From Calditrichales bacterium (lineage in GTDB: Bacteria; Calditrichota; Calditrichia; Calditrichales; J004), in contig OZ254086.1 in NCBI GenBank assembly GCA_965267575.1, positions 1,312,001 through 1,376,000 on the forward strand: DNA of 64,000 bases, given 5' to 3'. A program made the translations under genes and the position numbers. A model generated the notes under the pieces. It worked only from the letters and a program-made list of their open reading frames with translations, was not told the origin of the DNA and ran no database searches. How positions within the stretch are numbered: position 1 is the first letter of the stretch; every line of letters begins with the position of its first letter. Shown here in pieces: positions 15,695 through 62,203 of the stretch.

Positions 15695-15717
15695 AACTCC
15701 TCCCAGATCGGAATCAA

Positions 15718-16614: not shown

Positions 16615-16616
16615 AG

Positions 16617-16649
16617 AAAAAATATACGGCCACCCATGGGTGACCGTAT
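16617..16649 (-). terminator. Intrinsic terminator/attenuator after the 565-aa gene
   Basis: Minus strand ATACGGTCACCC-AT-GGGTGGCCGTAT followed by ATTTTTT. Confidence 0.7.
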
Positions 16650-16665
16650 TTCGCTTTAAACAGGC

Positions 16666-18363
16666 TTACTGGTTGTTTTCTTTTTCTTCCCAGCTTTTGG
16701 TGTTTTTATGAACATAGCCCATATTTTGAATGGTCTTTTTAAATACGCCCATTACCGTAATCTTTTTACCTTCTTCGGCAAAACGGAAAGCATCTTCCAG
16801 CTGCGCCTGAAGAGATTTAAATTTTTCTGTTGAAACCGCTCCGGAAGGCTGTTTGATATCAGCCAGCAGCGTTTCCAGCTGCTCTTTTTCCGCATCAAAC
16901 GGCTCTACTCCCCGCGGAAGCCTTCTCAGGTCAGCCAGCAGTCCGTTAAAGTCGGTCAGATCGTTTTGAATACCGGTATGTAATGAATCGATGTTGTCAA
17001 AAAGATTACCGCCATAAAGCTGTTCAAAAATGATAATGGAATTGCGCGCATTTTCAACCGCCTTTTCCAACTCACTGAAACTATTTGAATTATTATAGAC
17101 GTTTACAAAATTGCGCAGGTCGGCAGCCGCAGTATACTCGCTGCTTTGCAGAAACTTATTGATCTTCTCTTCGATCTCTTTGTTTTTCACGGTAATTTCT
17201 ATATTACGGCGCAATTCGCCTTTGATATCCAAACCTTTTTGGTAGATCGCTTCCAGCGTATCGTGATAGGTGAAAAACGCGTTTAAAAAACCGAATCCGG
17301 TTACTTCATCCACAACAGGCTTTACTTTTTCTTTAAGGTCATCCAGCAGTAACGGACTTTCCACTTTTACATCTTTACCGTCCTCATCAATTTCAATCAA
17401 ATACAACTTACCGCTAACAGGGCTGGAGAACTTTTCCTTTGTCAAGGTCAGGATCATGGAATCGCTTTCCGAAAGGCGATACATAGCGCTGCGACTCGTT
17501 ACAATAAAATCGGCCAGAAACTGCTGGTACGTTTTTTCCAGAGATTCTCTTAATTCTTCTGCCCGGGAAAGATCTTCCGTACTGTTAGCCTTCTTGATCG
17601 TTTGCAGGCCGGACGTTACATCTGCAGCAAAATCCTTGATGCGGTCTGCCACACTGGTAAACTGACTTACCTCTGAGTTGTCTACGCGATCATTAAACGC
17701 AGCCAGACGGTTATCCAGTGTTGTCCATTCGCTTTCAAAATTCGTCCAGTTTACCGACGGCAAATAAGGATTGAGATGGGTTACGTTGTCTTTAGCCCGG
17801 GAAGCAGCTGTTTGCAGATTGTAATCTGACAGGTCGCGGCGAAGCTGATGCAGTGAATCCAATGAGTGAACGGCTACGGCCAGATTGGGATAGGCCACGT
17901 CGTTTTCAAACTCTGAAAGCTGGAGACGTAACTCACTGGCTTCATTGAGAATAGATTCATCCGCCCGGAAATATCGCTCGTTTGCTTCCAGGTCGTCTTT
18001 AATGTTATCGATATTTTGATATACCTTCACAAAACCATCTATCGTTGGGATGGAAAGATAATTATCTATTTGATTCATAAGCTGGATCGTGTAGTCGACG
18101 ATTTTTTGATTTTGATGTATGGCGGAATCGTTTTTAACGACCTGCAGCAGAGTATCAATGTCCGTGGTAAAAGAGCCGGTTAAACGGGAAAAATATTTTT
18201 CTGCTTCGTAGATGCTGGACATGTTATATCGGGATTGCTCTTGTTCCAATGCTTCTTCTTCCCAGATACTGTCCGGAATTTTGATTACGGCGATAAGAGC
18301 TCCAATTAAAACTACGATCAATATTTTATATAAAATGGAACCCTTTCCAGAAGACCTAGCCAT
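16666..18363 (-). CDS. Large N-terminally anchored pilin-like protein with two helical inserts
   Basis: Short basic leader and TM; SRYNMSSIYEAEKYFSRLTGSFTTDIDTL resembles the pilin alpha1-C segment; GGAGG RBS. The ORF is clear, the function uncertain. Confidence 0.55.
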   Translation of the reverse strand: MARSSGKGSILYKILIVVLIGALIAVIKIPDSIWEEEALEQEQSRYNMSSIYEAEKYFSRLTGSFTTDIDTLLQVVKNDSAIHQNQKIVDYTIQLMNQIDNYLSIPTIDGFVKVYQNIDNIKDDLEANERYFRADESILNEASELRLQLSEFENDVAYPNLAVAVHSLDSLHQLRRDLSDYNLQTAASRAKDNVTHLNPYLPSVNWTNFESEWTTLDNRLAAFNDRVDNSEVSQFTSVADRIKDFAADVTSGLQTIKKANSTEDLSRAEELRESLEKTYQQFLADFIVTSRSAMYRLSESDSMILTLTKEKFSSPVSGKLYLIEIDEDGKDVKVESPLLLDDLKEKVKPVVDEVTGFGFLNAFFTYHDTLEAIYQKGLDIKGELRRNIEITVKNKEIEEKINKFLQSSEYTAAADLRNFVNVYNNSNSFSELEKAVENARNSIIIFEQLYGGNLFDNIDSLHTGIQNDLTDFNGLLADLRRLPRGVEPFDAEKEQLETLLADIKQPSGAVSTEKFKSLQAQLEDAFRFAEEGKKITVMGVFKKTIQNMGYVHKNTKSWEEKENNQ

Positions 18364-21286: not shown

Positions 21287-22486
21287 TTGCAGCGCATTTT
21301 TACCAAATATTCCGCAAACTTTAAAGGCATTTTATTTTTGCTGGCTTTATCGCTTATTGTGGGCGCGCTCTGGTACACACAGCAACTGGTAAATACATTA
21401 AAGGAAAAGTCGACTGAGTACATCAGTTTTCGGATAAAGGTGTTCGAAGAGAATATCAATAATCCCAATGCCGACATTGATGTCGGCTTTTTTTTTAATG
21501 AGGTTATACGTGGTTCGGACTATCCCATTATTTACACGGATACGGAAGGAAGGCCGCAGAGCTGGGTAAATATTTCTGCGCACCTGGATACGGTGACCAT
21601 TTTATCGCGCGAAGATTCTATTTTGCTAAGCAGCCGGTTGAATAAAATGAAGGTGGAAAACGAACCGCTTCCGATTACTTACCAGGGATCCGTTCTGGGT
21701 TATTATTATTATGGCCTTTCCCCTGAAATTTACCAGCTAAAGAATCTGCCCTTTATTGCCATTGGCGCCGGAATTGTTTTTGTTTTGATTGCTTATCTGG
21801 GTTTCGCTTATATCAAGAAAAGCGAGCAGCGCAATATATGGGTTGGCATGGCCAAGGAAACGGCCCATCAGCTTGGCACACCGCTTAGTTCACTTTCAGG
21901 GTGGATTGAGCTTCTGCGTGAAAGCAATCCTGAGGACGGCCATTTGGTTGACGAAATGGCCAATGACCTGAAACGGCTTAACAAAATTGCCACGCGGTTC
22001 AGCAAAATTGGCTCCAAACCTAACCTGGACAGGGTCAATTTAGAGGAAGTAATAAAGGACGTTACCGTTTATTTCGGAAAGAGGCTGCCTCATATTCAGA
22101 AACAGGTTGGCATAGAATTATCATGTCCGCCGAATCTCATGGTTCTGCTCAACCGCGATCTTTTTGAATGGGTGCTGGAAAACATGCTCAAAAACGCCAT
22201 TGATGCAATCGAAAAAAAGAAAGGGAAAATAAAAATTACGGCTGGCCCGGAAGAACGTAACGATTTGGTGGCTATAGACATCAAAGACAATGGCAAGGGA
22301 ATGAATACTACTGAAAAGAAGAACATTTTCAAACCCGGCTATAGCACTAAAACGAGGGGTTGGGGTCTCGGGTTAAGCCTTGCCAAAAGGATTATTGAAG
22401 AGTATCATGACGGTAAGTTATTGCTTAAGGAGACCCGGCCGGGAAATGGAACGACTTTCCGTATCCTTCTTAAAATGCCGAAATGA
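21287..22486 (+). CDS. Sensor histidine kinase
   Basis: 2 TM; H-box ETAHQLGTPLS; N-box ENMLKNAIDA; DNGKG; FKPGYSTKTRGWGLGL. Confidence 0.93.
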   Translation: MQRIFTKYSANFKGILFLLALSLIVGALWYTQQLVNTLKEKSTEYISFRIKVFEENINNPNADIDVGFFFNEVIRGSDYPIIYTDTEGRPQSWVNISAHLDTVTILSREDSILLSSRLNKMKVENEPLPITYQGSVLGYYYYGLSPEIYQLKNLPFIAIGAGIVFVLIAYLGFAYIKKSEQRNIWVGMAKETAHQLGTPLSSLSGWIELLRESNPEDGHLVDEMANDLKRLNKIATRFSKIGSKPNLDRVNLEEVIKDVTVYFGKRLPHIQKQVGIELSCPPNLMVLLNRDLFEWVLENMLKNAIDAIEKKKGKIKITAGPEERNDLVAIDIKDNGKGMNTTEKKNIFKPGYSTKTRGWGLGLSLAKRIIEEYHDGKLLLKETRPGNGTTFRILLKMPK

Positions 22487-22503
22487 AAACATCCGGAGAT
22501 AAA

Positions 22504-23097
22504 ATGAAAAGAGCGACTTTTACTCGTCAAAAAGAATTTTCAGAACTGGCAGAACCGCATCTTTCGTCTTTGTACAGCACGGCCATGCGCATGACCCGCA
22601 ACAATCAGGATGCTGAAGATCTTGTACAGGATACGCTCTATAAAGCATATCGCGCGCTTAACCAGTTTCAGAAAAATACCAATTTCAGGGCCTGGATTTT
22701 CAAAATCCTTGTAAACACCTTTATTACCGGATACCGTAAAGCCGTCAAGCAGCCTAAAAAGGTGAGCTATGAGGATATTCATGAGTTCATTTTGTATAAG
22801 GGCGCCAAAATCGATGAAAGCCTGCTCTCTGATGACAGCAAAGTGGATATCATAAACCACTATTTTGATGACGAAATAAAGGAGGCACTTGAAAATCTTC
22901 CTTATCAGTTCAGGCTGGTCGTGCTGCTTTGTGACATTGAAGGGTTTTCCTATAACGAAATAGCACACATCATCGATGTGCCTCTTGGAACGGTTATGTC
23001 CCGGCTTTACAGGGGACGCCGTTTACTGCAACGAACGCTGTGGGATTACGCCAAAGAAAAAGGGTACGTCGGAGAACATACTCGGGTAAAAAAATAG
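22504..23097 (+). CDS. ECF RNA polymerase sigma factor (SigH/SigR-like)
   Basis: DAEDLVQDT, NFRAWIFKI, EGFSYNEIA..PLGTVMSRLYRGR; GGAGA RBS before 22504. Confidence 0.92.
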   Translation: MKRATFTRQKEFSELAEPHLSSLYSTAMRMTRNNQDAEDLVQDTLYKAYRALNQFQKNTNFRAWIFKILVNTFITGYRKAVKQPKKVSYEDIHEFILYKGAKIDESLLSDDSKVDIINHYFDDEIKEALENLPYQFRLVVLLCDIEGFSYNEIAHIIDVPLGTVMSRLYRGRRLLQRTLWDYAKEKGYVGEHTRVKK

Positions 23098-31458: not shown

Positions 31459-32566
31459 AATAAATCTGTTTATCAGCTACCTTTATCATTTTTGCTTCGT
31501 TACCCAGGCGGGCGTAAAAAGACTGTTTTGAAGTAGTTGTTATAAATGTTTGTCCGGATGAATTAAAGTTAATTAAAAAATTTTTAATCCGGTTATCATC
31601 AAGTTCCCCAAAAACATCATCCATCAGAAAAATAGCTGTCTTCTTTTTTGAATCCGATATGAATTCATTTTCAAGTAACTTTAGTGCTATGAGAAAGGTT
31701 TTGTTTTCGCCCTGTGAACCAAAGGCTTTTATCGGTTTTCCTTCTTTTAAAAACTCGATATCGTCCCTGTGTGGACCAATCGTCGCCCGAGCATTTTTTC
31801 TTTCTGATAGCTCATTATCAGCAAGTGCTTTTGTAAAATTTTCAGCCAGCTTTTTTGCTGAATATTCTCCGTTTGTCTTTACCGTCGAATTATAAATAAT
31901 ACTTATTTTCTCTTCCTTACTGGAGATTTTTCTGTAATAATCTCCAATTCTTTCATTTAGATATTGAACCAATTCAAGCCGGCTTTTAACTATTTCCGAT
32001 CCGTAAACCGCCATTTGCTGATTCCATAAATCGAGCTCTTTATCAATTAATCTTTTATCTTCAGAATTAAGCAGCCTGTTTTTTTGATTAACAACGCGTT
32101 TGTAATTCTGTAGATTTATCAAATATTCTTTACTTACCTGTGATAACAGAATGTCTGCAAAACGTCTTCTTGACGACGGAACACCGTATGTGATGTCCAA
32201 ATCTTCCAAAGAAAGGAGGGTCACGGGGATATAACCGATTAACTCCGAAAATGCTTTTATTTTTTGATTATTCAAAAAGGCGTGTTTGCCATCTTTAGAA
32301 GAATAATAAAGTCTCAATTTGGTTGTACGGTCAACACCGTCAAAAAGGCTCCCTGTAATATCAAAAAAGCTGGCACTATTATTAACAGCCACTGCATCAT
32401 TTCCGGATCTAAAGCTTTTTGTTATAGCCAGATAATAGATGGCCTCCAAAAGCGTGGTTTTACCCTGGGCGTTAAGTCCGTGAATAATGTTTACAGCAGG
32501 GTGGAAATCAATTTCAATATTTTCAAAAAGTCGAAAATTTTTTAAAACTAATTTATTCAAAAACAT
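31448..32566 (-). CDS. recF: DNA replication and repair protein RecF
   Basis: GLNAQGKTTLLEAIY, GPHRDD, GSQGE, LMDDVFGELD. Confidence 0.96.
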   Translation of the reverse strand: MFLNKLVLKNFRLFENIEIDFHPAVNIIHGLNAQGKTTLLEAIYYLAITKSFRSGNDAVAVNNSASFFDITGSLFDGVDRTTKLRLYYSSKDGKHAFLNNQKIKAFSELIGYIPVTLLSLEDLDITYGVPSSRRRFADILLSQVSKEYLINLQNYKRVVNQKNRLLNSEDKRLIDKELDLWNQQMAVYGSEIVKSRLELVQYLNERIGDYYRKISSKEEKISIIYNSTVKTNGEYSAKKLAENFTKALADNELSERKNARATIGPHRDDIEFLKEGKPIKAFGSQGENKTFLIALKLLENEFISDSKKKTAIFLMDDVFGELDDNRIKNFLINFNSSGQTFITTTSKQSFYARLGNEAKMIKVADKQIYYEA

Positions 32567-33681
32567 TAATTTATGCGCACAGGCATAATTAACATAACAA
32601 TGTTTAGACCGTTACTTTCTTCCTGTACAGGATAAACAAGTGCGGGTCCGTCAGCATCGTTTACTGTAAAACGGATTGAACTGGTATCCAAGTGTCGCAA
32701 TAGATCTATCAGATAGTTTGCATTATAGGCTATATCCAGGGCATCGCCGGCATAATCACACTCTATCCGCTCATTAGCTTCTCCGCCAAAATCAATATCC
32801 TGTGCTGAAACACTTACTATATTTGTGTTCAACCCGAGGCGTATTTGAGACGTAATAGGATTTGAAAAAAGCGAAACACGTTTGACGGAGGAAATAAAAT
32901 TACTTCTTTCAATAACAAATTCTTTAGAAAATTCAGCCGGGATAACCCGTTCATAATCAGGATAAGGTTCATTTATTATACGTGAGTAAATCTTTGTTTC
33001 AGGAAGTTCAAACAGAACGTGGTTTTCGCTAAGAGTAAATACCTGATCGCCGTTTTCAGGAAGGTTGCGTGCAACAAAGTTGAGTGCTTTAGTCGGAATA
33101 ATTAAATCGCGCGTAAACCCGGAACCCTTAAATTCCGTATCGAGAATTTTTACAAGGCGATGGCCATCGGTCGCAACCATTCTGAATTCATTTTCAAGAA
33201 TCTGGCATAATACGCCTGTTAATGCCGGACGAAAATGATCGGTTGAACAAGCAAAAATTGTTTTTTCAATCATCTTTTTAAAATGATTGTTTGATATGCT
33301 TGTCTTTTGTTCGGTATCGACTTCAGGAGTAGAAGGAAAGTCAGACTTACTTTCTCCGGAAAGTTTATATTCTCCCAAATCGGATTTTATCAATATTTTA
33401 AGATTTGAATCAGCGGTGAATTCAATTTTAGTATTAGGCAGTTCCCGAATGATATCCATCAACAGTTTTCCGGGAATGGTAATTTCACCTTCCGTTTCAA
33501 CATCACAATCAGTCCAGGATATCTGTGTTATTTCGAGATCAGTTGCAGTTATTTGAAGACGACCGTCTTTTGCGGATAATAATACGTTATATAAAATATC
33601 AACGGTAGATTTAGTAGGAATTACATTTATTACCTTTTGAAGAGCTTTGTGAAAACCGTCGCGCGCAACTGTAAATTTCAT
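32566..33681 (-). CDS. dnaN: DNA polymerase III beta sliding clamp
   Basis: ATDLEI, RPALTGV, VATDGHRL, YPDYERVIP, LIMPVR; GGAGG RBS. Confidence 0.97.
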   Translation of the reverse strand: MKFTVARDGFHKALQKVINVIPTKSTVDILYNVLLSAKDGRLQITATDLEITQISWTDCDVETEGEITIPGKLLMDIIRELPNTKIEFTADSNLKILIKSDLGEYKLSGESKSDFPSTPEVDTEQKTSISNNHFKKMIEKTIFACSTDHFRPALTGVLCQILENEFRMVATDGHRLVKILDTEFKGSGFTRDLIIPTKALNFVARNLPENGDQVFTLSENHVLFELPETKIYSRIINEPYPDYERVIPAEFSKEFVIERSNFISSVKRVSLFSNPITSQIRLGLNTNIVSVSAQDIDFGGEANERIECDYAGDALDIAYNANYLIDLLRHLDTSSIRFTVNDADGPALVYPVQEESNGLNIVMLIMPVRIN

Positions 33682-33710
33682 CGATCCTCCCTGTCCCTTA
33701 AAAACTTTCG

Positions 33711-33739
33711 AAATTAACCAAATAGTAGGAATAGGTCAA
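33711..33739 (-). promoter_or_regulatory. Putative dnaN promoter
   Basis: Minus strand TTGACC-17 nt-TAATTT, about 30 nt upstream of the start codon. Confidence 0.6.
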
Positions 33740-34080
33740 GGTAACAATTAGATGTCTTTTTATCATTATTAATATTAAGAATTTAATATATAATTCATTT
33801 TAGTAGTATATGATGTTGATATGTTTATAACCCTGCTTAAGACCCGAAAAATAAGAGAAGGATTAAAAAATAATTATGTGTATGAAAAAGCAAAATCAAT
33901 GGATAATACAATTTAAATCGAAGATTGAATTATGAAATTAATGCTTATTAACATGCAATAAAGATTTTGTACACATAGTTATTAACAACACATATAGATT
34001 AAATAAGCTGTTGTTTTTACTTATTTTGCAGTTAAAAAAATAAAAAAATACATATTTTGCTTGCACAGATATTTTTTATT
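33740..34080. other. Chromosomal replication origin (oriC)
   Basis: Very AT-rich intergenic region between dnaN and rpmH. DnaA-box-like 9-mers (each 7/9 to TTATCCACA) at 33814, 33822, 33877, 33898 (minus) and 33945, 33967, 33979 (plus). TAGTAG trios next to the tandem boxes. Gene orientation diverges here. Confidence 0.85.
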
Positions 34081-34118
34081 TAAATTATGAGTCTTTTACG
34101 AAAATAATTGGAGGTAAA

Positions 34119-34277
34119 ATGAAACGCACTTTTCAACCAAGCAATAGAAAGAGAAAAAATAAGCACGGGTTTAGGGAAAGAATGCAATCCAAAAACGGAC
34201 GTGCTGTTTTGGCCAGAAGACGCGCAAAGGGAAGAAAACGCCTGTCTGTTAGTGATGAATATAATAGGTCAGCCTAG
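34119..34277 (+). CDS. rpmH: 50S ribosomal protein L34
   Basis: Manual translation [60 protein letters not shown]; below the ORF-track length cutoff. Confidence 0.97.
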
Positions 34278-45845: not shown

Positions 45846-47042
45846 ATGAGATTTCTATTTTTTGCATTACTGACAGTACTGATTTCTTCTTGTGCCAATC
45901 TTGATCCGAATGATAACCCAAACAGCGAATATGGAGGGACGGACCGTTACGGAAATCTTACTGCTGATACGTTGTACGCGCTTCAGGATACGGTAAGACA
46001 ATTTGATTACGTTTCTTCCGGAACGAGTTTGAAATTGTCCTTGGCCGATCTGGGCGGCTTAAAGGCCGGCTTTTTTATTCGCTTTACAACATTACCGGAT
46101 TCGCTGGAGAGATTACTTTCTGCCCAGGTTGATTTTATAACCAATGAATCATTCGGTTTGAATATCGGTGATTCTATGCAGGTGGATGTCTTTTCCGTTT
46201 CGCGTGAATGGATCTCCACGGATGTCAATACGACCGAAGATTTCCGCAATAATCCACCGGCTGACTACATTGAGACGATATCCTTTAGCGCCGCTGATTC
46301 CGCCCGAAGCAGCTACGTTCTGCCGATGAACCTGGCGGAACAATGGATTCTGAATGACTCGCTGAATTATGGCCTTTATTTTACACCAAGAGCAGGCCAG
46401 GGAGACGTGGCCATAAACGTTGGTGCGCTTGGAGCGTCCCTTGCGCCACAGCTTATTATTGAAAGAAGCACGGATTCCACAGCTGTCAGAGATACACTTG
46501 CCACGGGACCAGACGCGACGCTGTTTTCCATGAACATGAATCCGCCTGCTCTGCAAATAAGCGGAGAGCAGGTAGTCGTTGCCAGCGGCGTACCGGTAAG
46601 AACTTTTTTAAAGTTTGACCTATCCAGCCTGCCACGTAATGCGATCTACTATGACGCTTATGTAACATTATTTGATGTAGAAGATAATCCATACGAAAAC
46701 CCGGAAAAGAATAATTTGTTTTATTTGCGCAATATTTCGGAAGCAGGCCCTGATCTGTCGACATTTACAATAGATTCCAGCTTCACAACCAACTTCAGGC
46801 AAAGCTTTTCCCTGGAGCAGACTTCATCCAATAATTTTGCCAAGCTGCGCGGTTTTGAGCGCAATTATTTCGCTGAGGATTTTATTCAGCTCTACCTCAA
46901 TGGCGAAATTGATCATGAATGGTTTTTGCTGCATTACATCAACGAAGGAACCGATCTTTCTGTAAAAAGGTTTTATGGAGCAGGCGTAGCAGACAAAAAT
47001 CTGAGACCGATACTGGTCGTTAAATATATAAACGGAAATTAA
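45846..47042 (+). CDS. Lipoprotein, DUF4270-like
   Basis: Lipobox LISSC; beta-rich; C-terminal RPILVVKY. The family call rests on resemblance and on position downstream of the GT5 gene. Confidence 0.55.
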   Translation: MRFLFFALLTVLISSCANLDPNDNPNSEYGGTDRYGNLTADTLYALQDTVRQFDYVSSGTSLKLSLADLGGLKAGFFIRFTTLPDSLERLLSAQVDFITNESFGLNIGDSMQVDVFSVSREWISTDVNTTEDFRNNPPADYIETISFSAADSARSSYVLPMNLAEQWILNDSLNYGLYFTPRAGQGDVAINVGALGASLAPQLIIERSTDSTAVRDTLATGPDATLFSMNMNPPALQISGEQVVVASGVPVRTFLKFDLSSLPRNAIYYDAYVTLFDVEDNPYENPEKNNLFYLRNISEAGPDLSTFTIDSSFTTNFRQSFSLEQTSSNNFAKLRGFERNYFAEDFIQLYLNGEIDHEWFLLHYINEGTDLSVKRFYGAGVADKNLRPILVVKYINGN

Positions 47043-47046
47043 TATT

Positions 47047-48243
47047 GTGAGACAGCTAATTATTTGTACCCTAATAGGATTTACTTTTGCCTTTGCCGGA
47101 GAGAGCCGTTTCGGGCTTGTGACCAATTCTCTTGGAAAGCTGGATACCCATTATGGAGCGGCGGGCAGTGGACGCAATTTTAGTATTGCGCTGCGCGATT
47201 CCCTTCAAATCAACTTCCGGAATTTTAGTACCAGCACGGATATATCGCGAGCGACGTTTACTATAAACGCAGGCTACAATGCCATCTGGGGCGATAACAG
47301 CATATCTAAAAATTTCATCGATGATGCCAATTTCAGCGGCGCTTTTCTTGGTATTCCGCTGATGGAAAAAAAGATGTCCATGGTTGCCAGTGTAACACCG
47401 TACACATCCCTTGAACAGCGCATAGAGAACAGAACAACATTTCAAGGGCAGCCGGTAGTTGAAAACCTGGTAGTGCGCGGCGGTATCGCGCGAACCAATC
47501 TTAACCTGGCTTATAAATTTTCCGATCAGCTGTCCGTCGCAGCCGGATACGAATTTACGTTCGGCCGCATTTCCGAGGACATCGTTTACGACATTGAAGA
47601 CGATCTTAATTCTCAGGTCGAATTCAGCTACGATAACCAGGTCCGTGGCCAGGGAGTTTTATTATCCGCTTATTACCGCCCGGTTGATCGTTTGCATTTG
47701 GGATTTGCGGTGCGTCCGCCCGTTGTAGGTACTTTTTCGAGAATGGGCAATACCGGTTCAAATGAGCTTGACCTGGAAAGAGAAGTGGACCTGCTGTTAC
47801 CGGCAGAGTACAGCCTGGGCATGGTTTATGACTTGAGTGAGTTTTATGCGCTGGGAACAGATCTTATTTACCAGGGCTGGAAGAAAGGTTATGAGCTGGA
47901 TAACCAATCCGTTTCTAACCATAATGACTATTTCAGGCTGGGAGTAGGCCTGGAAAGAAAAGCAACCGACAGGCGTTTTGTAAACTATGGCGAGCAAGTA
48001 AGCTACCGCGCCGGTCTCTATTACAGTACATTGGCGCAGACTTTTAATAATAAAACCGTTAATGAATATGGATTTTCAGTTGGTGTTTCATTGCCCGTAC
48101 AAAGATTCCGTTCCAAGGTGGATCTTGCATTGATTGCCGGGCGCCGGGGAGATGCTGGAGTTGTCGGCCTGGAGGAAACATTCCTTGGAATTGGTTTTTC
48201 AATAAGTGCAAATGAAACATGGTTTGTTAATATAGAGGATTAG
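47047..48243 (+). CDS. Outer membrane beta-barrel, OmpP1/FadL-like
   Basis: Signal peptide; N-terminal plug-like segment; amphipathic strands; YRAGLYY, EYGFSVGVSLP, NETWF. Confidence 0.8.
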   Translation: MRQLIICTLIGFTFAFAGESRFGLVTNSLGKLDTHYGAAGSGRNFSIALRDSLQINFRNFSTSTDISRATFTINAGYNAIWGDNSISKNFIDDANFSGAFLGIPLMEKKMSMVASVTPYTSLEQRIENRTTFQGQPVVENLVVRGGIARTNLNLAYKFSDQLSVAAGYEFTFGRISEDIVYDIEDDLNSQVEFSYDNQVRGQGVLLSAYYRPVDRLHLGFAVRPPVVGTFSRMGNTGSNELDLEREVDLLLPAEYSLGMVYDLSEFYALGTDLIYQGWKKGYELDNQSVSNHNDYFRLGVGLERKATDRRFVNYGEQVSYRAGLYYSTLAQTFNNKTVNEYGFSVGVSLPVQRFRSKVDLALIAGRRGDAGVVGLEETFLGIGFSISANETWFVNIED

Positions 48244-53089: not shown

Positions 53090-54109
53090 ATGGAGCGGAC
53101 GAAAATTTTGATAATCCGGTTAAGTTCAATCGGAGATATAATTTTAACCAGCGCTTTTGTAAGGCAGACCCGCCGGGCTTTTCCGCAGGCGGAAATACAT
53201 TTTACCGTAAAGAAAAAATTCGCCGATCTGCTGCGTTTTAATCCGCACATAGATAAACTGATTGAGTTTGATGATGCCGGCGGCTATAAAGAGTTGCAGA
53301 AACTGGCGTCCACCATACGGGCCAGCAACTACAGCCATATCTTTGATCTGCATAATAATCTGCGCAGCAACCGGATAACGCGGGGCATAAAACCTTCCTA
53401 CCTAAAAAGAATCAGTAAAGACAAGATCAGGCGGGCGGTTCTGGTATACCTGAAAATTAATCTCTATAAAAGAGCGATCGCCATTCCCCAGCGCTATCTT
53501 GCCGTGGGTGCTGAAGCCGGTGTACAGGATGACCAAAAAGGGCTGGAGCTGTTTTGGGATGATGCGATCGAAAAGAAGCTTGATAACGCCTTAAGCGCCA
53601 ACGGAATAGGGCAACGTTTTTGGGCGGTTGCGCCGGGGGCCGGTTTTGCTACCAAAATGTGGCCTCATGACTACCTGAACAAACTGCTCAAAGAGCTGGC
53701 CGGCCATGAAGATGATCTGCCCGTTGTTTTGTTGGGTTCCCAGGCGGAACGTGCGATGTTTTCCAGACTGGCAAAAACAAAAAAAGTGTATAACCTGGCC
53801 GGAAAGCTTAGTTTGCTGGAGTCGGCCGCCGTTTTGAAAAGAGCTGACTTTCTGCTTACCAACGATTCCGGCCTTATGCATATGGCCAGCGCCGTCGGCA
53901 CGCCGGTAACGGCTATTTTCGGTTCAACGGTGCGCGAGCTGGGCTTTTTTCCCTACCGCGTGCAGAATAAAGTTTTGGAGCAGCAGCTGTGGTGCCGCCC
54001 CTGTTCGCACGTTGGCAGAAGAACCTGTCCCCTTGGCCATTTTAAATGCATGCGTGAGATAACGCCGGATATTGTGCAAAAACATTTAAACAAAGCCTAT
54101 TCTTTATGA
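53090..54109 (+). CDS. GT9 ADP-heptose:LPS heptosyltransferase (WaaF-like)
   Basis: IRLSSIGDIIL, NDSGLMHMASAVGTP..IFGST, CRPCS..C..C. Confidence 0.9.
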   Translation: MERTKILIIRLSSIGDIILTSAFVRQTRRAFPQAEIHFTVKKKFADLLRFNPHIDKLIEFDDAGGYKELQKLASTIRASNYSHIFDLHNNLRSNRITRGIKPSYLKRISKDKIRRAVLVYLKINLYKRAIAIPQRYLAVGAEAGVQDDQKGLELFWDDAIEKKLDNALSANGIGQRFWAVAPGAGFATKMWPHDYLNKLLKELAGHEDDLPVVLLGSQAERAMFSRLAKTKKVYNLAGKLSLLESAAVLKRADFLLTNDSGLMHMASAVGTPVTAIFGSTVRELGFFPYRVQNKVLEQQLWCRPCSHVGRRTCPLGHFKCMREITPDIVQKHLNKAYSL

Positions 54110-55377
54110 GCCGCCTTTTTTACAATTTTTTTGTTTTGCCGCTTTTGTGTCTGTTTGCCCACGTCGCAGCTGTTTTCGATCGCAAATGGCGCGCGGCGAT
54201 AAGCGCGAGATATAAAACGGTTAAACGCTATAAAGAATGGGTTGAAAAAATTCCACGCGAGCGGTCTGTTGTTTATTTCCACGCTGCTTCAATGGGCGAG
54301 TTCGAGCACATAAAGCCGCTTCTGCAAAACCTGGCAAGCGCAGGCCGGGGCAATGTAGAGATTGTCGTTTCATTTTTCTCACCGTCGGCCTATGACCATG
54401 TTCAATCCCATGAAGGCGTCGGATTGTTTATCTACCTGCCGTTCGATTTTACCTTTACCTGGAAGAAATTATTCAACGCACGCAAACCCGATGCCATCCT
54501 GATCTCCAAGCATGATGTCTGGCCCAACATGACGCATACCGCGCGGCGCTATGACATCAAGGCTTTTCTCGTAAACGCTTCTTTGTCAGAAAAATCCAGT
54601 CGTGGCGGCGCACCCTCGCGCTGGTTCCTGGCGCCGGCCTACAGAAATCTTGAGAAGATATATGCTATCAGTAAACAGGATGCGGCACGCTTTGAAAACC
54701 TGTTTAATTGTAAAAATGTCGTTATTAACGGGGACACAAAGTTTGACCAGGTCTTTGAAAGAAAAAAAAGCGCCGAACAAAAAAAGCGTTTGGACCAAAG
54801 CTGGGAAGAGGCTACCGTTCTGCTGTATGGCAGTATTTGGCCGCAGGATGGAGCGGCCGTTCTGCCGCACCTGGAAAAATTTCTAAACGGTTCGGGCAAG
54901 CGCCGCGCGATCATTGTTCCTCATCAGCCCAAAAATGAAATTATTGATCAGCTTACGACGCATATTAAGAAGACGAAAACAGCCCGGTTTTCGGAGAACG
55001 ATTTTAAAACCAGCATTCTTATTGTTGACAGGATTGGCCTTTTAGCAGAACTGTACAGCTATGCAGATATCGCTTACGTAGGCGGCAGTTTTAGACAGGG
55101 TGTGCATAATGTGATGGAACCGGCTGTATATGGCATACCCGTTTTGTACGGACCGGTACACAAAAACGCCTATGAGGCGGTTGAGCTGGCAGAATTTGGT
55201 GCGGGCATTGTTATTAACAACGCGAACGAATTCTACGAAACTGCAGAAAAACTGGCCACGGATAGCGCATACAGAAAAAGCATTGGCGAGAAAGCGGCGG
55301 CATTCGCCCAAAAACATACCGGCGCCACAAAGCGTGTCATGGACGATTTAAAGACTTTCCTTAAAACTTCAGGTTGA
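54106..55377 (+). CDS. waaA: Kdo transferase
   Basis: FHAASMGE, YLPFD, GDTKFD, VGGSF..HNVMEPA.YG.PV..GP. Confidence 0.92.
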   Translation: MSRLFYNFFVLPLLCLFAHVAAVFDRKWRAAISARYKTVKRYKEWVEKIPRERSVVYFHAASMGEFEHIKPLLQNLASAGRGNVEIVVSFFSPSAYDHVQSHEGVGLFIYLPFDFTFTWKKLFNARKPDAILISKHDVWPNMTHTARRYDIKAFLVNASLSEKSSRGGAPSRWFLAPAYRNLEKIYAISKQDAARFENLFNCKNVVINGDTKFDQVFERKKSAEQKKRLDQSWEEATVLLYGSIWPQDGAAVLPHLEKFLNGSGKRRAIIVPHQPKNEIIDQLTTHIKKTKTARFSENDFKTSILIVDRIGLLAELYSYADIAYVGGSFRQGVHNVMEPAVYGIPVLYGPVHKNAYEAVELAEFGAGIVINNANEFYETAEKLATDSAYRKSIGEKAAAFAQKHTGATKRVMDDLKTFLKTSG

Positions 55378-55402: not shown

Positions 55403-55432
55403 ATGGCTGTTTCATTCAGGGGAAGCTGTATT

Positions 55433-58400
55433 ATGCTGGCTTTGCGCGTGCTGTTAGCGGCGGCTGTGCTTTTATCCGCCAGTGCATTTAATCCGGATTT
55501 TAAACATATTACAATTGAGGATGGCTTATCTCAGGGTACGGTCTTTGCTATCCTTCAGGACAGCCAGGGCTTTATGTGGTTTGGTACCGAAGACGGCCTT
55601 AACCGCTATAACGGTTATGAGTTTACTATATTTAAAAATGATCCAACCGATAGCACAAGCCTGCACAATAATTTTGTAACTGCCCTCCTGGAAGACGAGG
55701 AAGGATATATCTGGATAGGCACGATCCAGGGCCTTTCGCGTTATAACCCGCGCACAGAAAATTTCTTGCAAATAGACCAACCTAAACTGGCGGACGTTTA
55801 TGTCAACAATCTTAGCCAGGACCAGGCGGGAGCCATTTGGATTGCCACCCTAAAGAATGGCGTTTTTTCCTTTGATCATGCAGACGAGAGGATTAAACAT
55901 TACAACAGCAAAACAGGCCTTTCCGATGACCGCACCTGGAAAGTCATCGCGGATAAAGACGGCGCATGGATCGCAACCTCGTCCGGATTGAATTATCTGG
56001 ACCTTACCGTCGGCACGGTTAAAACATACCGTTTCCCGCAAGCGGACGATAACGCCGTTCGTGATTTTATAATTAACAGCGATAGCTCTCTGTGGATATG
56101 CTTTTACAGCTCGGGAATCGGTTATCTTGACACGACGCGCAGCATTCAAAATATATATGCGACAGGGTTTGAAGGACAAAACGCGCGAAAAATTATGAAG
56201 GACGGAGAAGGACGCATTTGGATCGCCACGATGTTTGACGGCGTAAATGTTTTCGATCCTGAAAACGGCACACTTCAAAGCTTGCACTATGAAAAGGATA
56301 ATCCAAGCAGCCTGAGCGGCAATTATGTTGAATCTATTTACCTCGACAAAAACGGATTGATCTGGGTGGGCTGTAACGCAAACGGAGTAAATTTATACGA
56401 TCCGAACAAAAAAAAATTTACGCATATCGGTGCCGAAGACGGACTTAGCGACGTGATGGTGTACGAAGTTTACGAAGACCCAAAATACGGTGGCGAAATT
56501 GTCTGGATCGGGACAGACAAAGGCGGACTGAACAAGCTGGAAAAGAGCACAGGCCAGATTACCGTTTACAGTAAGAATGAGAACAATCCGAATTCCCTGC
56601 AAAATAATTCCGTTCGCGTGGTTTTCCGGGATATAAACTCCCGCCTGTGGATTGGCACCGCCGACGGGCTTTACTTGTTTGATGAAGCAAATGAGCATTT
56701 TAGCAGGCTGGAAAGTGAAAACCCGAAACTATCGACAATTTCCGTTCGAGCGCTGTTGAATCGCCCAGGTGAGGACGGCGATGTGTTGTGGATAGGCGGC
56801 GCCAGCATGGGCTTTGTGCGCTACGATTTGAAAAACCGCACCTATAGAACTTTTGCAGCTAAGGAAGACGGCGGGATATTAAGTTCGGGATTTGTGCGTT
56901 CGGCCATGTTCGACCACGGGGGCGATTTATGGATAGGCACACTGGGCGGCGGCTTGAACAGATTGTATCCGGATAAAGATACGGTTGACATATTTTTGAA
57001 TGATCCGCAAAACCCAAACAGCCTAAGCAATAACATTGTGCTTAGCATAATTGAGGACATCAGTCCGCAGAAAAAGGATGTTTTGTGGCTGGGCACGGCG
57101 GCCGGCATCTCCAGGCTTGAACCGCAAACCGGGATATTCAGCTCGCTTACTCAAAAAGACGGATTACCCAATGATGTTATTTATGCGGTCCTTCAGGATG
57201 AAAAAGGCCGTCTGTGGGCATCAACCAATAAGGGGATCTCTCGTTATAATCCCGCTGACAGCACCTTTAAAAATTTTGACGTAACCGATGGTTTGCAGGG
57301 TGAGGAATTTAATGCCGGGGCTTACGATAAAAGCGTCACCGGTTACCTCTATTTTGGCGGCGTAAACGGTGTTAACTACTTTCATCCGGACAGCATCATG
57401 ATCAACACATCACCGCCAAGGGTGCACATAACAAGTTTTAAAAAGTTCAACAAAGAGACGGACCTTCCGCAATCGATCACCTTTACTGAACAGGTCGATC
57501 TATCCTACAAGGATGATTTTTTTTCGTTTGAGTTTGCGGCGATAGACTACGGTGCCCCGGAAAAAGTTGAATATGCCTATATGATGGAGGGCTTTGACAA
57601 GGATTGGATTTATGGCGGAAACCGGCGTTACGCGGGTTATACCAATCTTGATCCCGGTGAATATATGTTCAGAGTAAAAGCCGCGAATTCCGACGGAGTA
57701 TGGAATGAACAGGGGGCGTCAATGGCAGTTACTATCGCTACGCCGCCCTGGAAAAGCTGGTGGGCTTACCTGCTTTATGCCCTGGTGCTTGTCTTGCTGG
57801 TGCAGGGCCTGCGTTGGGCTGTCAAAAACCGTAAAAGCATTCTGGCCCTGCGCAAGAGAAAGATATCGCACTATAAATTGATTGAAGTGATTGGCGAGGG
57901 CGGACTGGGCATTGTTTACAAGGCTTTAGATTTTAATACAAACGAGCAGGTCGCTGTAAAGTTGTTAAAGCCCGATTTGCTTGAAGATGAAAAGAACCGG
58001 CAGCGATTTGCCAACGAAGGCCGCATGCTTACGGAGCTGGAGCATGAACATATTATAAATGCATATGAAATCGGTGAAGCGGACAAGCAGGGCTATATCG
58101 CAATGGAGTATTTGCCGGGCGGTACATTGCAGCAGTACCTCCACCGATCCCATCCACTGGAAATAAAGGAAATCCAACGCATTTGCCTGCAAATTACGGA
58201 TGCACTTGAACTGATCCATGCAAAGAATATTATACATCGTGACCTGAAGACGTCAAACATCATGCTGGATGAGAACGGTAATGTCCGCGTTATGGATTTC
58301 GGATTGTCAAAGTCGCCCATCGTTGCTACAATGACAACCCTGGGGACGGTGATGGGCACGCTGGGTTATGTGGCACCGGAGCAAATAACCAACATTGATG

Positions 58401-58675
58401 TTGATCACCGGGTGGATATATTCAGCTTTGGAGTGATTTTATATGAAATGCTAACGAATACACTTCCTTTTATCGGAGAAAACGAAATGGCTATGATCCA
58501 TGCGATCTTTAACGCACGGCCTGAAAAACCAAGCGTGCTTCGCGATGACATTGTGCCGGATTGGGATACAATTGTCTTTCGCTGCCTTAAAAAAGAACCA
58601 TCCCGGCGCTATCAGAGCTTTTCTGAGATCCGCGTTGAACTCAAAGAACTCACACTTATCCCGGTTAGATTGTAA
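55433..58675 (+). CDS. Receptor-type Ser/Thr kinase: Reg_prop propellers + Y_Y_Y + TM + Hanks kinase
   Basis: DGLSQ/QDSQGFMWFGTEDGL repeats; YTNLDPGEYMFRVKAANSDGVW; PPWKSWWAYLLY TM; GEGGLG, VAVK, HRDLKTSN, DFG, APE, DIFSFG. Confidence 0.92.
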   Translation: MLALRVLLAAAVLLSASAFNPDFKHITIEDGLSQGTVFAILQDSQGFMWFGTEDGLNRYNGYEFTIFKNDPTDSTSLHNNFVTALLEDEEGYIWIGTIQGLSRYNPRTENFLQIDQPKLADVYVNNLSQDQAGAIWIATLKNGVFSFDHADERIKHYNSKTGLSDDRTWKVIADKDGAWIATSSGLNYLDLTVGTVKTYRFPQADDNAVRDFIINSDSSLWICFYSSGIGYLDTTRSIQNIYATGFEGQNARKIMKDGEGRIWIATMFDGVNVFDPENGTLQSLHYEKDNPSSLSGNYVESIYLDKNGLIWVGCNANGVNLYDPNKKKFTHIGAEDGLSDVMVYEVYEDPKYGGEIVWIGTDKGGLNKLEKSTGQITVYSKNENNPNSLQNNSVRVVFRDINSRLWIGTADGLYLFDEANEHFSRLESENPKLSTISVRALLNRPGEDGDVLWIGGASMGFVRYDLKNRTYRTFAAKEDGGILSSGFVRSAMFDHGGDLWIGTLGGGLNRLYPDKDTVDIFLNDPQNPNSLSNNIVLSIIEDISPQKKDVLWLGTAAGISRLEPQTGIFSSLTQKDGLPNDVIYAVLQDEKGRLWASTNKGISRYNPADSTFKNFDVTDGLQGEEFNAGAYDKSVTGYLYFGGVNGVNYFHPDSIMINTSPPRVHITSFKKFNKETDLPQSITFTEQVDLSYKDDFFSFEFAAIDYGAPEKVEYAYMMEGFDKDWIYGGNRRYAGYTNLDPGEYMFRVKAANSDGVWNEQGASMAVTIATPPWKSWWAYLLYALVLVLLVQGLRWAVKNRKSILALRKRKISHYKLIEVIGEGGLGIVYKALDFNTNEQVAVKLLKPDLLEDEKNRQRFANEGRMLTELEHEHIINAYEIGEADKQGYIAMEYLPGGTLQQYLHRSHPLEIKEIQRICLQITDALELIHAKNIIHRDLKTSNIMLDENGNVRVMDFGLSKSPIVATMTTLGTVMGTLGYVAPEQITNIDVDHRVDIFSFGVILYEMLTNTLPFIGENEMAMIHAIFNARPEKPSVLRDDIVPDWDTIVFRCLKKEPSRRYQSFSEIRVELKELTLIPVRL

Positions 58676-59742
58676 TGATACGGTTTATCAGTATTCCCGC
58701 GCTCATCGCCGCTATTCCACTATTAAACGGCCTGGCCCTGGTCGTTTACATGTATGCTCACCCGGATCAGTCACTTGCCATTAAAGTGTGGAATTACCTG
58801 GAATCAGACACTTTTAAGCTTATCAGCGGTTCGCTGATTATTCCGTTGTTCTTTTCCGTGCTGGAAAAGCGTTACAGTTTTTTGGAAAGTCTGCGCAAGC
58901 AGCGTGAAGACAAGCACCGCCAATTGAGAGACGAAAAAAGAGCGGCCAGGAGAAAGGTGATTGATGAAACCCTTGAGATGTGGCGCAAATTGTACGACCT
59001 GGCCGGAAAGCTTATCTTTTTTGTGCCTCAGAAGGATGATCCGGAAAAAATGAATAGCATTGTCTCGGAGATGATGGCATTTACCTCCTTCGCCGAGCAA
59101 ATCGTCAACAAGTGGTCGCATCAGTTTCCCGTATTAAGCCGCCGCGACCAGGACCTTTTTCTTGAATTTATAAATGTTCTCTACCAGTCATCCTTAAGTG
59201 TTGCCTTTTTTATCCAGGACGAAAAGGACGAAAAAATCCGCGGATATTATCAAAATATGCTATACCTCATCCAGGACCAGATAAAGTCCATTGCCCATCA
59301 TCGAATTTTGAATTCCCTAAAATATGCTTTAAACGTGATGGAGTTGCGCGAGGATTACGCGGAAAAAGCAGCGATCGAGCAAGCTGAGAGTCAGTTGCAG
59401 GAGGTATTGAAGCAGTTGCGCGAATGGTATGATCACCTACGCAGGCTGGATGACAAGTTCGATAACTTTATGTCGCCGGCAACCGGAAAAGCCATAGAAG
59501 AGCTGCGATCGACGGCGCGGAAAATAGAAACGTGGCTGAAGGAAGATGAGAAAAGGCTTGTATGGAATCATGACGAATACTGGCCGGTATTTGAAAAGCA
59601 GTACAATGCGTTGACGCTGGAAGAAAAACTGGCCTCTTACCGCGCGCCTTATTCAAAGGAGTATCTGGAAGCACTGGCGCATGACTTCAGTTTGTCGTCC
59701 GCGTGCGAATATATTTATAACAGAGCACATGGTATTTGGTAG
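58675..59742 (+). CDS. Hypothetical membrane protein (2 N-terminal TM + helical domain)
   Basis: 355 aa; start overlaps the kinase stop (TAATG). Confidence 0.7.
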   Translation: MIRFISIPALIAAIPLLNGLALVVYMYAHPDQSLAIKVWNYLESDTFKLISGSLIIPLFFSVLEKRYSFLESLRKQREDKHRQLRDEKRAARRKVIDETLEMWRKLYDLAGKLIFFVPQKDDPEKMNSIVSEMMAFTSFAEQIVNKWSHQFPVLSRRDQDLFLEFINVLYQSSLSVAFFIQDEKDEKIRGYYQNMLYLIQDQIKSIAHHRILNSLKYALNVMELREDYAEKAAIEQAESQLQEVLKQLREWYDHLRRLDDKFDNFMSPATGKAIEELRSTARKIETWLKEDEKRLVWNHDEYWPVFEKQYNALTLEEKLASYRAPYSKEYLEALAHDFSLSSACEYIYNRAHGIW

Positions 59743-60863: not shown

Positions 60864-61396
60864 ATGAGAGACCGGAAATTGGCGAGATAGTAACAGACAG
60901 GTTGATCCTTACAGCACTCCGTTATGAGAAGCATTATTTGCTTATCAAAGAGCTTTTTAAAAACGATCCATCCATGTTTTTTCACGACGATGCGGCTATA
61001 AGCGCCGCTGCCGAACATTGGTTTGAGAAATATGCTGCCAGTAAAACAAGCCCGGTCTTTGGTTACCGCGCGTGCGTCTTAAAAAAGACGAACCAGCCAA
61101 TCGGGCAGTGCGGCTTTTTGTCGTCGGAAAATCCGGAAAACCCAGAACTTGGGATTTCTATTTTAAGGCCATTCTGGAACAAGGGTTATGCGACGGAAGC
61201 GATCACAGCCTTGATGGATTGGGCCGAAGTTAACCACAGTGTGTGTGGGTTCAGCGCTTTTGCTATGACTTATAATGAAGGGGCCAAAAGAATTCTTGAA
61301 AAGGCCGGATTTTCTTTTCTGCGGGAAACGACGCAAAATGGCCACCCCGCCTGCCATTATACGCGTTTATTAAATAAGCGCAACGCCGGCAGCTGA
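60860..61396 (+). CDS. GNAT acetyltransferase, RimJ/RimL type
   Basis: TDRLIL, IGQCG, ELG, WNKGYATEA, N..AKRILEKAGF; ATGA overlap with the upstream gene. Confidence 0.88.
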   Translation: MNERPEIGEIVTDRLILTALRYEKHYLLIKELFKNDPSMFFHDDAAISAAAEHWFEKYAASKTSPVFGYRACVLKKTNQPIGQCGFLSSENPENPELGISILRPFWNKGYATEAITALMDWAEVNHSVCGFSAFAMTYNEGAKRILEKAGFSFLRETTQNGHPACHYTRLLNKRNAGS

Positions 61397-62203
61397 ACAA
61401 TCAACATGGCGCTTAACATTAAAACCATACCGGTCATTTTTCTTCCATCCACACCCTCGCCAAGGAAATAAAACCCAAACAACGCGGCAAAAACAGTTTC
61501 CAGCGAAAGAATGATACCTGCCTGAGATGCGCTGGCATGACGCTGTCCGAAAAGCTGTAACGTATAACCAAAGGCAATTGAAATTACTCCCGTATACAGG
61601 ATAGCCGGTGTTGCAAGGTAGAGCATTTCAAAATGAAGGCTTTCGCTAAACAAAGCAGCCAACAGGCTAAACGCAGCGCAGCTAAAATATTGCCCGACAG
61701 CAAGGTCCACGGGCGCCAGGTGCTGTACGATACGTGAAATAAGCAGTACGTGGGCGGCCCAGAAAAAGGCACCAAAAAAGACCAGGATATCACCAGGGTT
61801 AACATGCAATGAAGCATCAAAACTGATCAGGTAAAGCCCCGCCAGGGACAGCGCTACGGAAATCCAGACAACAGCAGGAATACGTTCTTTAAATTTCAAA
61901 ACAGCCATCAGTGGGATAAGCACGACATAGAGACCGGTAATAGGTGGTGTGCTCGATACCGGCCTGCTGAAAAAAGCTGCCTAAAAAGAGCAGAGCACCA
62001 GGCAGGATCGTTTGTTTCCAGTATGGAGCACTGCGTTTAAAAGGCCGGCTGATAAAGGGCAGTAATACAATCGCGCCGATTAGAAAGCGGCTGGCATTAA
62101 AAGAAAAAGGGCCCACGTAGCGGGCCCCGATACTTTGCGCCACAAAAGCGCTGCCCCAAAAAATGGCGGCAAGAAGCAGAAACAGATGACCTTTGAAGCG
62201 CAT
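61357..62203 (-). pseudogene. EamA/DMT transporter split by a frameshift near 61942
   Basis: Two ORF pieces join as FWGSAFVAQ...QQAGIEHTT | ITGLYVVLIP with one extra base between them. Confidence 0.82.

Follow-up and report, generated by a model that had tools for sequence, protein, structure and literature searches.

A predicted receptor Ser/Thr kinase carrying a sensor ectodomain of the hybrid two-component type in a Calditrichales bacterium

The plus strand of a 64,000-bp window from a Calditrichales bacterium (contig OZ254086.1, positions 1,312,001 to 1,376,000; GC content 45.4%, zero N) carries a gene for a predicted membrane receptor kinase, encoded by an uninterrupted open reading frame (ORF) of 3273 nt at 55403..58675 (1090 residues). 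The initial annotation had read this ORF as a leader, a series of Reg_prop blades, a Y_Y_Y domain, a single transmembrane helix, and a Hanks kinase, an architecture borne out by Pfam, hydropathy, motifs, and a structure model. The likely start is the second ATG, at 55433, which yields a protein of 1080 residues. A database copy that is 100% identical (P0002, 1080 residues, on a contig of 4,732,520 bp) and an 89%-identical relative (P0003, aligned over its residues 1-1080 to ORF residues 11-1090) both begin there, and AGGGGA lies 8-13 nt 5' of this codon; hence our preference. Residue numbers nonetheless count from the ATG at 55403, i.e., in the 1090-residue frame. The GC content is continuous through the junction of the sensor and kinase halves (0.474 over 57500-57999, with 0.464 and 0.460 in the flanks), with no break.

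The N-terminal portion is made up of Reg_prop repeats (Pfam, E 1.8e-39), with 13 blades recovered by a motif scan and the first, at about residue 52, read by eye. The same 14 blades appear, as 56 strands between residues 33 and 660 with four to a blade, in an AlphaFold2 model whose input was alignment A1 (30 sequences, members 32-89% identical). They are followed by a Y_Y_Y domain (E 3.2e-19). Hydropathy identifies two hydrophobic segments only, residues 785-808 and a leader at residues 1-30 that closes on SASA followed by F and that is predicted to serve either as a signal peptide or as a signal anchor. Directly past the transmembrane helix, which ends at residue 808, comes KNRKSILALRKRK, and the kinase opens with a strand at residue 824, in keeping with the spacing of about 15 residues originally proposed. 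Basic stretches beside a transmembrane helix mark the cytoplasmic side (the positive-inside rule), and the basic stretch found here therefore places the kinase in the cytoplasm, with a predicted N-out/C-in topology. Neither HAMP nor any other recognized transmitter domain was found by Pfam in the 15-residue linker, and the whole protein has no match to HisKA, HATPase_c, a receiver domain, or an AraC-type helix-turn-helix (HTH) at E <= 0.01.

The C-terminal portion matches Pkinase (PF00069) over residues 824-1071 with an E value of 3.8e-59 and a score of 200.7 bits (cut-off 31.7). It contains the full set of Hanks motifs, namely, GEGGLG, VAVK (K853), E872, HRDLKTSN (D947 and N952), DFG (965-967), APE (991-993), DIFSFG, and R1069, and they are invariant or near-invariant both in alignment A1 and in 96 kinase rows, which include the query, its database copy, and an unrelated four-kinase protein (P0230). 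K853 and N952 are conserved in 96 of these 96 rows, D947 in 95, and D965 in 92. At the activation-loop residue T978, 83 rows have Thr and 4 have Ser, and a HMMER alignment pairs this residue with the first Thr of the SVTQT stretch of PknB, which we take to be T171, the main autophosphorylation site of that kinase. With every catalytic motif in place and conserved family-wide, the kinase is intact, as had been claimed from its sequence at the outset, and is predicted to be catalytically competent.

The model reaches a mean predicted local distance difference test (pLDDT) score of 86.9 and shows the 14 blades, the Y_Y_Y domain, the transmembrane helix, and the kinase. Its membrane-proximal and cytoplasmic segments are an 8-strand beta domain (673-778), the helix at 786-808, a short helix (810-816), and a bilobal kinase (824-1085), with the protein ending 5 residues later. 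Low confidence is limited to residues 1-5, 809-818, 975-982 (the activation loop), and 1086-1090. Searched against the PDB with Foldseek, the model retrieved as its top match the periplasmic domain of BT4663 (4A2L), a heparin-sensing hybrid two-component system (HTCS), with an E value of 1.7e-65, a target template modeling score (TM-score) of 0.81-0.83, and 29% identity. BT3049 (3V9F) came next (TM-score 0.81), the kinase PknB (2FUM) matched with a TM-score of 0.91 and a root mean square deviation of 1.9, and PorZ (5M11) was distant (0.35). Sequence searches gave E values of 1.2e-106 for 4A2L and about 5e-48 to 5e-47 for PknB/StkP. A two-copy homodimer prediction for residues 680-1090 scored 0.01, which counts neither for nor against a dimer.

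These matches place the protein among several known systems and identify it with none of them. It shares with the Bacteroides HTCS sensors (BT4663, 4A2L/4A2M; BT3049, 3V9F) a periplasmic double seven-bladed Reg_prop propeller and Y_Y_Y domain followed by a transmembrane helix, and their dimeric, ligand-switched mechanism is plausible here by homology. Unlike theirs, its output is a Hanks kinase instead of HisKA, HATPase_c, receiver, and AraC HTH modules, and its gene does not adjoin a polysaccharide utilization locus. The protein is not an HTCS, since a search for histidine kinase, receiver, and AraC features turned up none of them. PknB, StkP, and PrkC are likewise single-pass membrane receptors; the kinase domain is 34% identical to that of PknB and close to it in fold, and the activation-loop Thr aligns. 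Their order is opposite to that found here, where an N-terminal sensor precedes a C-terminal kinase; the studied bacterial receptor kinases are indeed kinase-first, as the initial annotation stated for those of the PknB type. PASTA repeats are also missing, and the NCBIfam model PknB_PASTA_kin (NF033483) reaches 299.9 bits against a cut-off of 450, matching through the kinase part alone (profile 8-268 of 563).

The extracytoplasmic propeller of Mycobacterium tuberculosis PknD is a six-bladed NHL propeller. PknD resembles the Calditrichales protein in that one transmembrane helix links a Hanks kinase to an extracytoplasmic beta-propeller, as described in the accessible text of PMC4601284. In PknD, however, the kinase comes first and a single propeller is C-terminal, whereas here two Reg_prop propellers and a Y_Y_Y domain are N-terminal; the NCBIfam PknD model scores 138.3 bits against a cut-off of 839. 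PorZ of the type IX secretion system (T9SS; 5M11), to which the Calditrichales protein shows weak matches, likewise places an all-beta domain, related in topology, after two seven-bladed propellers (PMC5121618, in the portion available). It differs in that it is secreted as a monomer, ends in a T9SS C-terminal domain, and has neither a transmembrane helix nor a kinase, and its NCBIfam model (NF052228) gives 120.8 bits against a cut-off of 260. Because these NCBIfam scores all lie under their cut-offs, the profiles indicate that the protein is not a PASTA kinase, PknD, or PorZ.

The same order of domains recurs widely. We collected 250 proteins, including the query and its own copy P0002, from the 120 best hits among 90%-identity clusters and the 150 best representatives of 50%-identity clusters. 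A kinase lies C-terminal to the Y_Y_Y/transmembrane region in 95 of the 250, i.e., in 93 of the 248 other proteins, and N-terminal to the ectodomain in none of these 248. By list, a protein kinase is present in 57 of the 120 best 90%-cluster hits (56 without P0002) and in 54 of the 150 best 50%-cluster representatives, 53 of which have the full architecture (P0230 lacks the ectodomain); these counts are lower bounds on clusters, not frequencies, and both lists are enriched for kinase-bearing proteins because the query carries a kinase. Five relatives align in a single collinear stretch over the full length (P0003 at 11-1090, P0123 at 27-1085, P0127 at 32-1086, P0195 at 16-1076, and P0204 at 33-1069). 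Named sources are Candidatus Marinimicrobia, Calditrichaeota, Melioribacteraceae, Blastocatellia, and Acidobacteria, and several relatives bear the JGI label [quoted passage not shown] The Reg_prop-Y_Y_Y-transmembrane-Pkinase design is thus common in environmental bacteria, not rare. A full-text literature search that lacked most subscription journals retrieved no paper describing it. Uncharacterized look-alikes had been suspected in databases, and they are there, in at least 53 clusters at 50% identity. One literature match for Y_Y_Y and Pkinase together concerned plant kinase fusions.

Kinases are one of many outputs on this sensor. Among the 120 best relatives, the same ectodomain is also coupled to HisKA/HATPase_c with or without receiver domains; to HisKA_2, HisKA_3, and HWE-type kinases with PAS domains; to SpoIIE phosphatases (e.g., P0065, P0093, and P0115); to GGDEF domains (P0047 and P0089); to adenylate/guanylate cyclases (P0081 and P0108); and to a sigma-54 AAA+ activator (P0121). 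An AraC-type HTH was found in a single one of them (P0106). The view that this ectodomain normally feeds a histidine kinase, receiver, and AraC output therefore stands for Bacteroides and fails for the relatives of this protein, where AraC accounts for 1 of 120 and the protein kinase for 57. Most simply, these sequences suggest that the receptor kinase arose as an output swap on a modular bacterial sensor-transmembrane chassis.

This chassis also bears on the eukaryotic comparison. Type-I receptor kinases of eukaryotes, such as plant receptor-like kinases and TGF-beta receptors, have the same topology of ectodomain, transmembrane segment, and cytoplasmic Ser/Thr kinase. Their ectodomains are unrelated to the one described here, and the Calditrichales kinase is closest to bacterial PknB/StkP. 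Because the same ectodomain carries many bacterial outputs, the type-I topology is that of the sensor chassis, which accounts for the shared arrangement. Of the type-I, eukaryote-like receptor that was first proposed, the N-out/C-in topology is retained and a special resemblance to eukaryotic receptors is not.

The gap between the end of the Y_Y_Y/transmembrane match and the start of the kinase falls into two classes, about 3-31 and about 61-109 residues. We built a FastTree phylogeny of 94 family kinase domains and 70 ordinary kinases, rooted at the midpoint and with a small outgroup, which was drawn from at least 77 loci detected by a genome scan with HRDLK and a blade motif; none of the 77 loci listed by this generic scan encodes the ectodomain, and all are ordinary kinases. 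The short-linker kinases (68, plus 2 from truncated proteins) form one clade of 70 with a support of 98 that contains the query, and 23 long-linker kinases form a separate clade with a support of 100. The long-linker P0147 stands alone, and the tree requires 3 label changes in all. This match of two kinase clades to two linker classes fits either a pair of independent fusions or a single, very old event. Our receptor kinase belongs to the short-linker clade of a populous, unnamed database family. In a second FastTree phylogeny, of 241 ectodomains (8 of 249 rows were dropped: P0013, P0057, P0070, P0108, P0120, P0130, P0228, and P0230), the kinase/other label changes 14 times; over 200 shuffles, the number of changes averaged 72 and never fell below 62. 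Kinase-coupled ectodomains make up 18 pure clades on a weakly supported backbone; since relatives share labels, this tree shows clustering of the kinase-coupled members and nothing more. Some long-linker relatives (P0018 and P0025) have a tandem kinase pair after the sensor, with two Pkinase stretches in P0018. The short-linker paralogs P0004 and P0011 are on contigs of equal size (28074), which suggests local duplication.

The gene is embedded in a long plus-strand housekeeping run recognized by Pfam, comprising starch synthase, HAD hydrolase, rpiB, glyA, tatC, polyprenyl synthase, GT9, and Kdo transferase genes (Table 1). No terminator-like or strong promoter-like site was found between 55377 and 55433, with a promoter scan for the sigma-70 consensus that may not suit the host, and the Kdo transferase and kinase genes are possibly in one transcription unit. 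The nearest named relatives of the Kdo transferase are from Calditrichaeota/Calditrichales (42-47% identity). Its 89% relative and that of the kinase (P0003) are on contigs of equal size (309425), as are its 47% relative P0264 and the kinase P0016 (9423), equal size being a proxy for the same contig that says nothing of adjacency. In one Calditrichaeota genome, the two genes are on different contigs (152690 and 998518). Linkage of the receptor kinase to lipopolysaccharide (LPS) core genes is therefore patchy. The ORF downstream, P0251, may be translationally coupled to the kinase gene. It has no Pfam family, and its Atlas matches are unnamed clusters only. A search of 5.8 billion clusters returned 7 homologs (41-51% identity) and none at the roughly 89% seen for the kinase and Kdo transferase relatives. 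Considered as a cognate partner or substrate, P0251 was rejected as a conserved partner, given these 7 homologs and the finding that none is on a contig size-matched to a kinase relative.

Table 1. Coordinates and supporting evidence for the receptor kinase gene, its domains, and the adjoining genes in the window
Feature	Coordinates	Strand	Evidence and remarks
GT9 heptosyltransferase-family gene	53090-54109	+	Precedes Kdo transferase gene
Kdo transferase (WaaA-like) gene, upstream	54106..55377	+	Pfam; stops 25 nt before the start of the kinase ORF
Receptor Ser/Thr kinase gene	55433..58675	+	Second ATG, likely start; ORF open from ATG 55403; stop TAA 58673-58675
Hydrophobic leader, residues 1-28, ending SASA before F	55403..55486	+	Hydropathy windows >1.6 at residues 1-12; helix 2-24 in model, low pLDDT
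First seven-bladed beta-propeller, Reg_prop blades 1-7, residues ~33-343	55499..56431	+	Blade motifs; 4 strands per blade; BT4663 match
Second seven-bladed beta-propeller, Reg_prop blades 8-14, residues ~344-666	56432..57400	+	Motif scan, model, Foldseek
Y_Y_Y all-beta domain, 8 strands, membrane-adjacent, residues 673-781	57419..57745	+	Pfam match at residues 715-778; model strands 673-778
Single transmembrane helix, residues 786-808	57758..57826	+	Hydropathy peak 785-790; helix 786-808 in model
Basic juxtamembrane linker KNRKSILALRKRKIS, residues 809-823	57827..57871	+	Sequence; pLDDT <50 at 809-818
Hanks-type Ser/Thr kinase domain, residues 824-1085	57872..58657	+	Pfam, PknB/StkP matches, fold, family conservation; K853, E872, D947, N952, DFG 965-967, T978 in activation loop
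ORF P0251, 355 residues, membrane N-terminus and helical domain	58675..59742	+	ATG overlaps kinase stop by 1 nt (TAATG)

That the product of the gene is a membrane receptor with an active kinase and a periplasmic sensor of the HTCS type is, in our judgment, almost certain. The favored reading as a whole adds a carbohydrate ligand and a mechanism based on dimer geometry, and we give it a probability of roughly 0.6; the carbohydrate nature of the ligand and its action through dimer geometry, argued by analogy, are tentative in their own right and fall somewhat short of even odds. BT4663 is dimeric, binds disaccharides at the entry faces of both of its propellers, and switches between bound and unbound conformations, with the Y_Y_Y domain acting as a membrane spacer and dimerization element (PMC5121618, accessible text). 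A scissor-like signaling movement is described in the available part of PMC8534201, and the corresponding part of PMC4601284 has receptor Hanks kinases activated through ligand-induced dimerization and autophosphorylation. By extension from BT4663, the receptor kinase would be an inner-membrane dimer, and a periplasmic ligand, most likely a carbohydrate, would occupy the entry faces of the propellers. Binding would alter the spacing of the two Y_Y_Y/transmembrane legs, closing them, and the short basic linker would relay this movement to the kinase domains. Brought to a suitable geometry, these would trans-autophosphorylate the activation loop at T978, and the activated kinase would phosphorylate cytoplasmic substrates encoded elsewhere.

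Several observations weigh against this mechanism. The linker and activation loop, through which the signal would pass, are modeled with pLDDT values of <50. The position of PknB L33, which we take to be a contact in the back-to-back dimer of that kinase, is T846 here and is not conserved in the family (T in 28, L in 16, D in 14, and S in 12 of the 96 rows), so a PknB-like dimer interface cannot be assumed; L33D/E mutants of PknB are named in PDB titles among the Foldseek matches. When the window's 58 other ORFs were scanned with Pfam, the thresholds applied yielded neither SusC/D nor glycoside hydrolases, in which the Bacteroides HTCS genes differ, and neither a PP2C phosphatase nor FHA proteins.

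The first of the rival explanations would have the ectodomain serve, instead of as a sensor of small ligands, as a scaffold or localization module that binds a periplasmic or outer-membrane protein or polymer, with a kinase that is constitutive or controlled from the cytoplasm. It draws on a linker of 15 residues devoid of HAMP or another recognized transmitter domain, on the family itself, in which no member has a known ligand, and on PorZ, which has the same fold without signaling (PMC5121618, as far as its accessible text goes). We consider it unlikely, as the same ectodomain and transmembrane helix are joined to at least six kinds of signaling output, the pattern of an input module, and the closest solved relative, BT4663, is a demonstrated ligand-switched sensor.

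A second alternative takes its cue from the neighborhood. The kinase would be co-transcribed with the GT9 and Kdo transferase genes, monitor LPS/core-oligosaccharide intermediates or the state of the outer membrane, and feed back on envelope biogenesis. The kinase ORF does begin 25 nt past the Kdo transferase gene, sharing its strand and separated from it by no terminator-like site, two pairs of kinase and Kdo transferase relatives share contig sizes (309425, and 9423 for P0016/P0264), and the related double-propeller protein PorZ is an anionic-LPS delivery protein according to NCBIfam, albeit with the below-cut-off match noted above (120.8 bits, cut-off 260). Against this, just 2 contig-size matches emerged from a comparison of 57 kinase-bearing rows with 120 WaaA rows, equal size is merely a proxy that does not imply adjacency, and one Calditrichaeota genome keeps kinase and WaaA on different contigs. 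The fold similarity to PorZ is weak (TM-score 0.35), and the neighbors tatC, polyprenyl synthase, glyA, and rpiB resemble a mixed housekeeping run. An envelope-glycan sensor is thus quite improbable on present evidence.

The remaining possibility, an artifact due either to chimeric assembly at the junction or to a pseudokinase gene that is decaying or inactive, is close to refuted by the ORF open over 3273 nt, the collinear full-length alignments to independent assemblies (P0003, P0123, P0127, P0195, and P0204), the domain order common to 93 of 248 relatives, the steady composition across the junction, and the complete, conserved catalytic residues. Within the limits of sequence evidence, the recurrent fusion and the continuous GC content therefore rule out a chimera at the junction, so the misassembly named initially as fatal to the receptor-kinase assignment finds no support.

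A bolder extension of the receptor-kinase reading would treat the Reg_prop-Y_Y_Y-transmembrane kinases as a distinct bacterial class of type-I receptor Ser/Thr kinases, in which the "scissor-blade" sensor of HTCSs directly sets the distance between two Hanks kinase domains, following the logic by which eukaryotic receptor kinases are activated. This class would have had at least two origins, one per kinase clade with its own linker length, and its member here would be tied to the LPS-core operon, reporting on envelope glycans and not on nutrients. We regard this as a speculative proposal with low odds.

Other features of the window are recorded briefly. A 437-bp gap (33682-34118) lies between the divergent genes dnaN (minus strand, 32566-33681) and rpmH (plus strand, 34119-34277), in what looks like a replication-origin region; rnpA, yidD, yidC, mnmE, mnmG, and rsmG lie past rpmH, and recF, a DciA-like gene, gyrB, and gyrA lie past dnaN. 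The window ORFs scanned gave no dnaA-family match. Two overlapping minus-strand ORFs in different frames (61889-62203 and 61357-61923) have one EamA domain each and together could make a normal two-domain drug/metabolite transporter of about 290 residues; the split could reflect a frameshift, decay to a pseudogene, or an error in sequencing. At 9266-10822, a free-standing protein of 518 residues has weak Reg_prop-like repeats and no output domain, with a BLASTP E value of 2e-05 and 22% identity to the kinase ectodomain and a PorZ_N_b_propeller match (2.7e-06). A histidine kinase gene (21287-22486; HisKA plus HATPase_c) overlaps by 4 nt a gene for an extracytoplasmic function (ECF)-type sigma factor (22483-23097), an unusual partner in place of a response regulator. 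Five ORFs of 403, 298, 565, 398, and 398 residues, at 14483-18363 (minus strand) and 45846-48243 (plus strand), could be assigned to no Pfam family under the thresholds applied; the pair of 398-residue ORFs at 45846-48243 were compared and rejected as paralogs, and the second has a very weak FadL/TodX-like match (E 0.057).

To signal-transduction specialists, the receptor kinase will come as no surprise, since output swapping on shared sensor modules is already familiar and automatic annotation already speaks of a sensor-domain protein kinase. Few bacterial receptor kinases have a known ligand. Because the BT4663-type sensor and the PknB-type kinase are each well understood singly, their fusion offers a tractable system for studying how a sensor switches a Hanks kinase across one transmembrane helix. 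The family is abundant in the poorly studied Calditrichaeota, Marinimicrobia, Acidobacteria, and Ignavibacteria-like lineages, and establishing its ligand class would annotate many genes.

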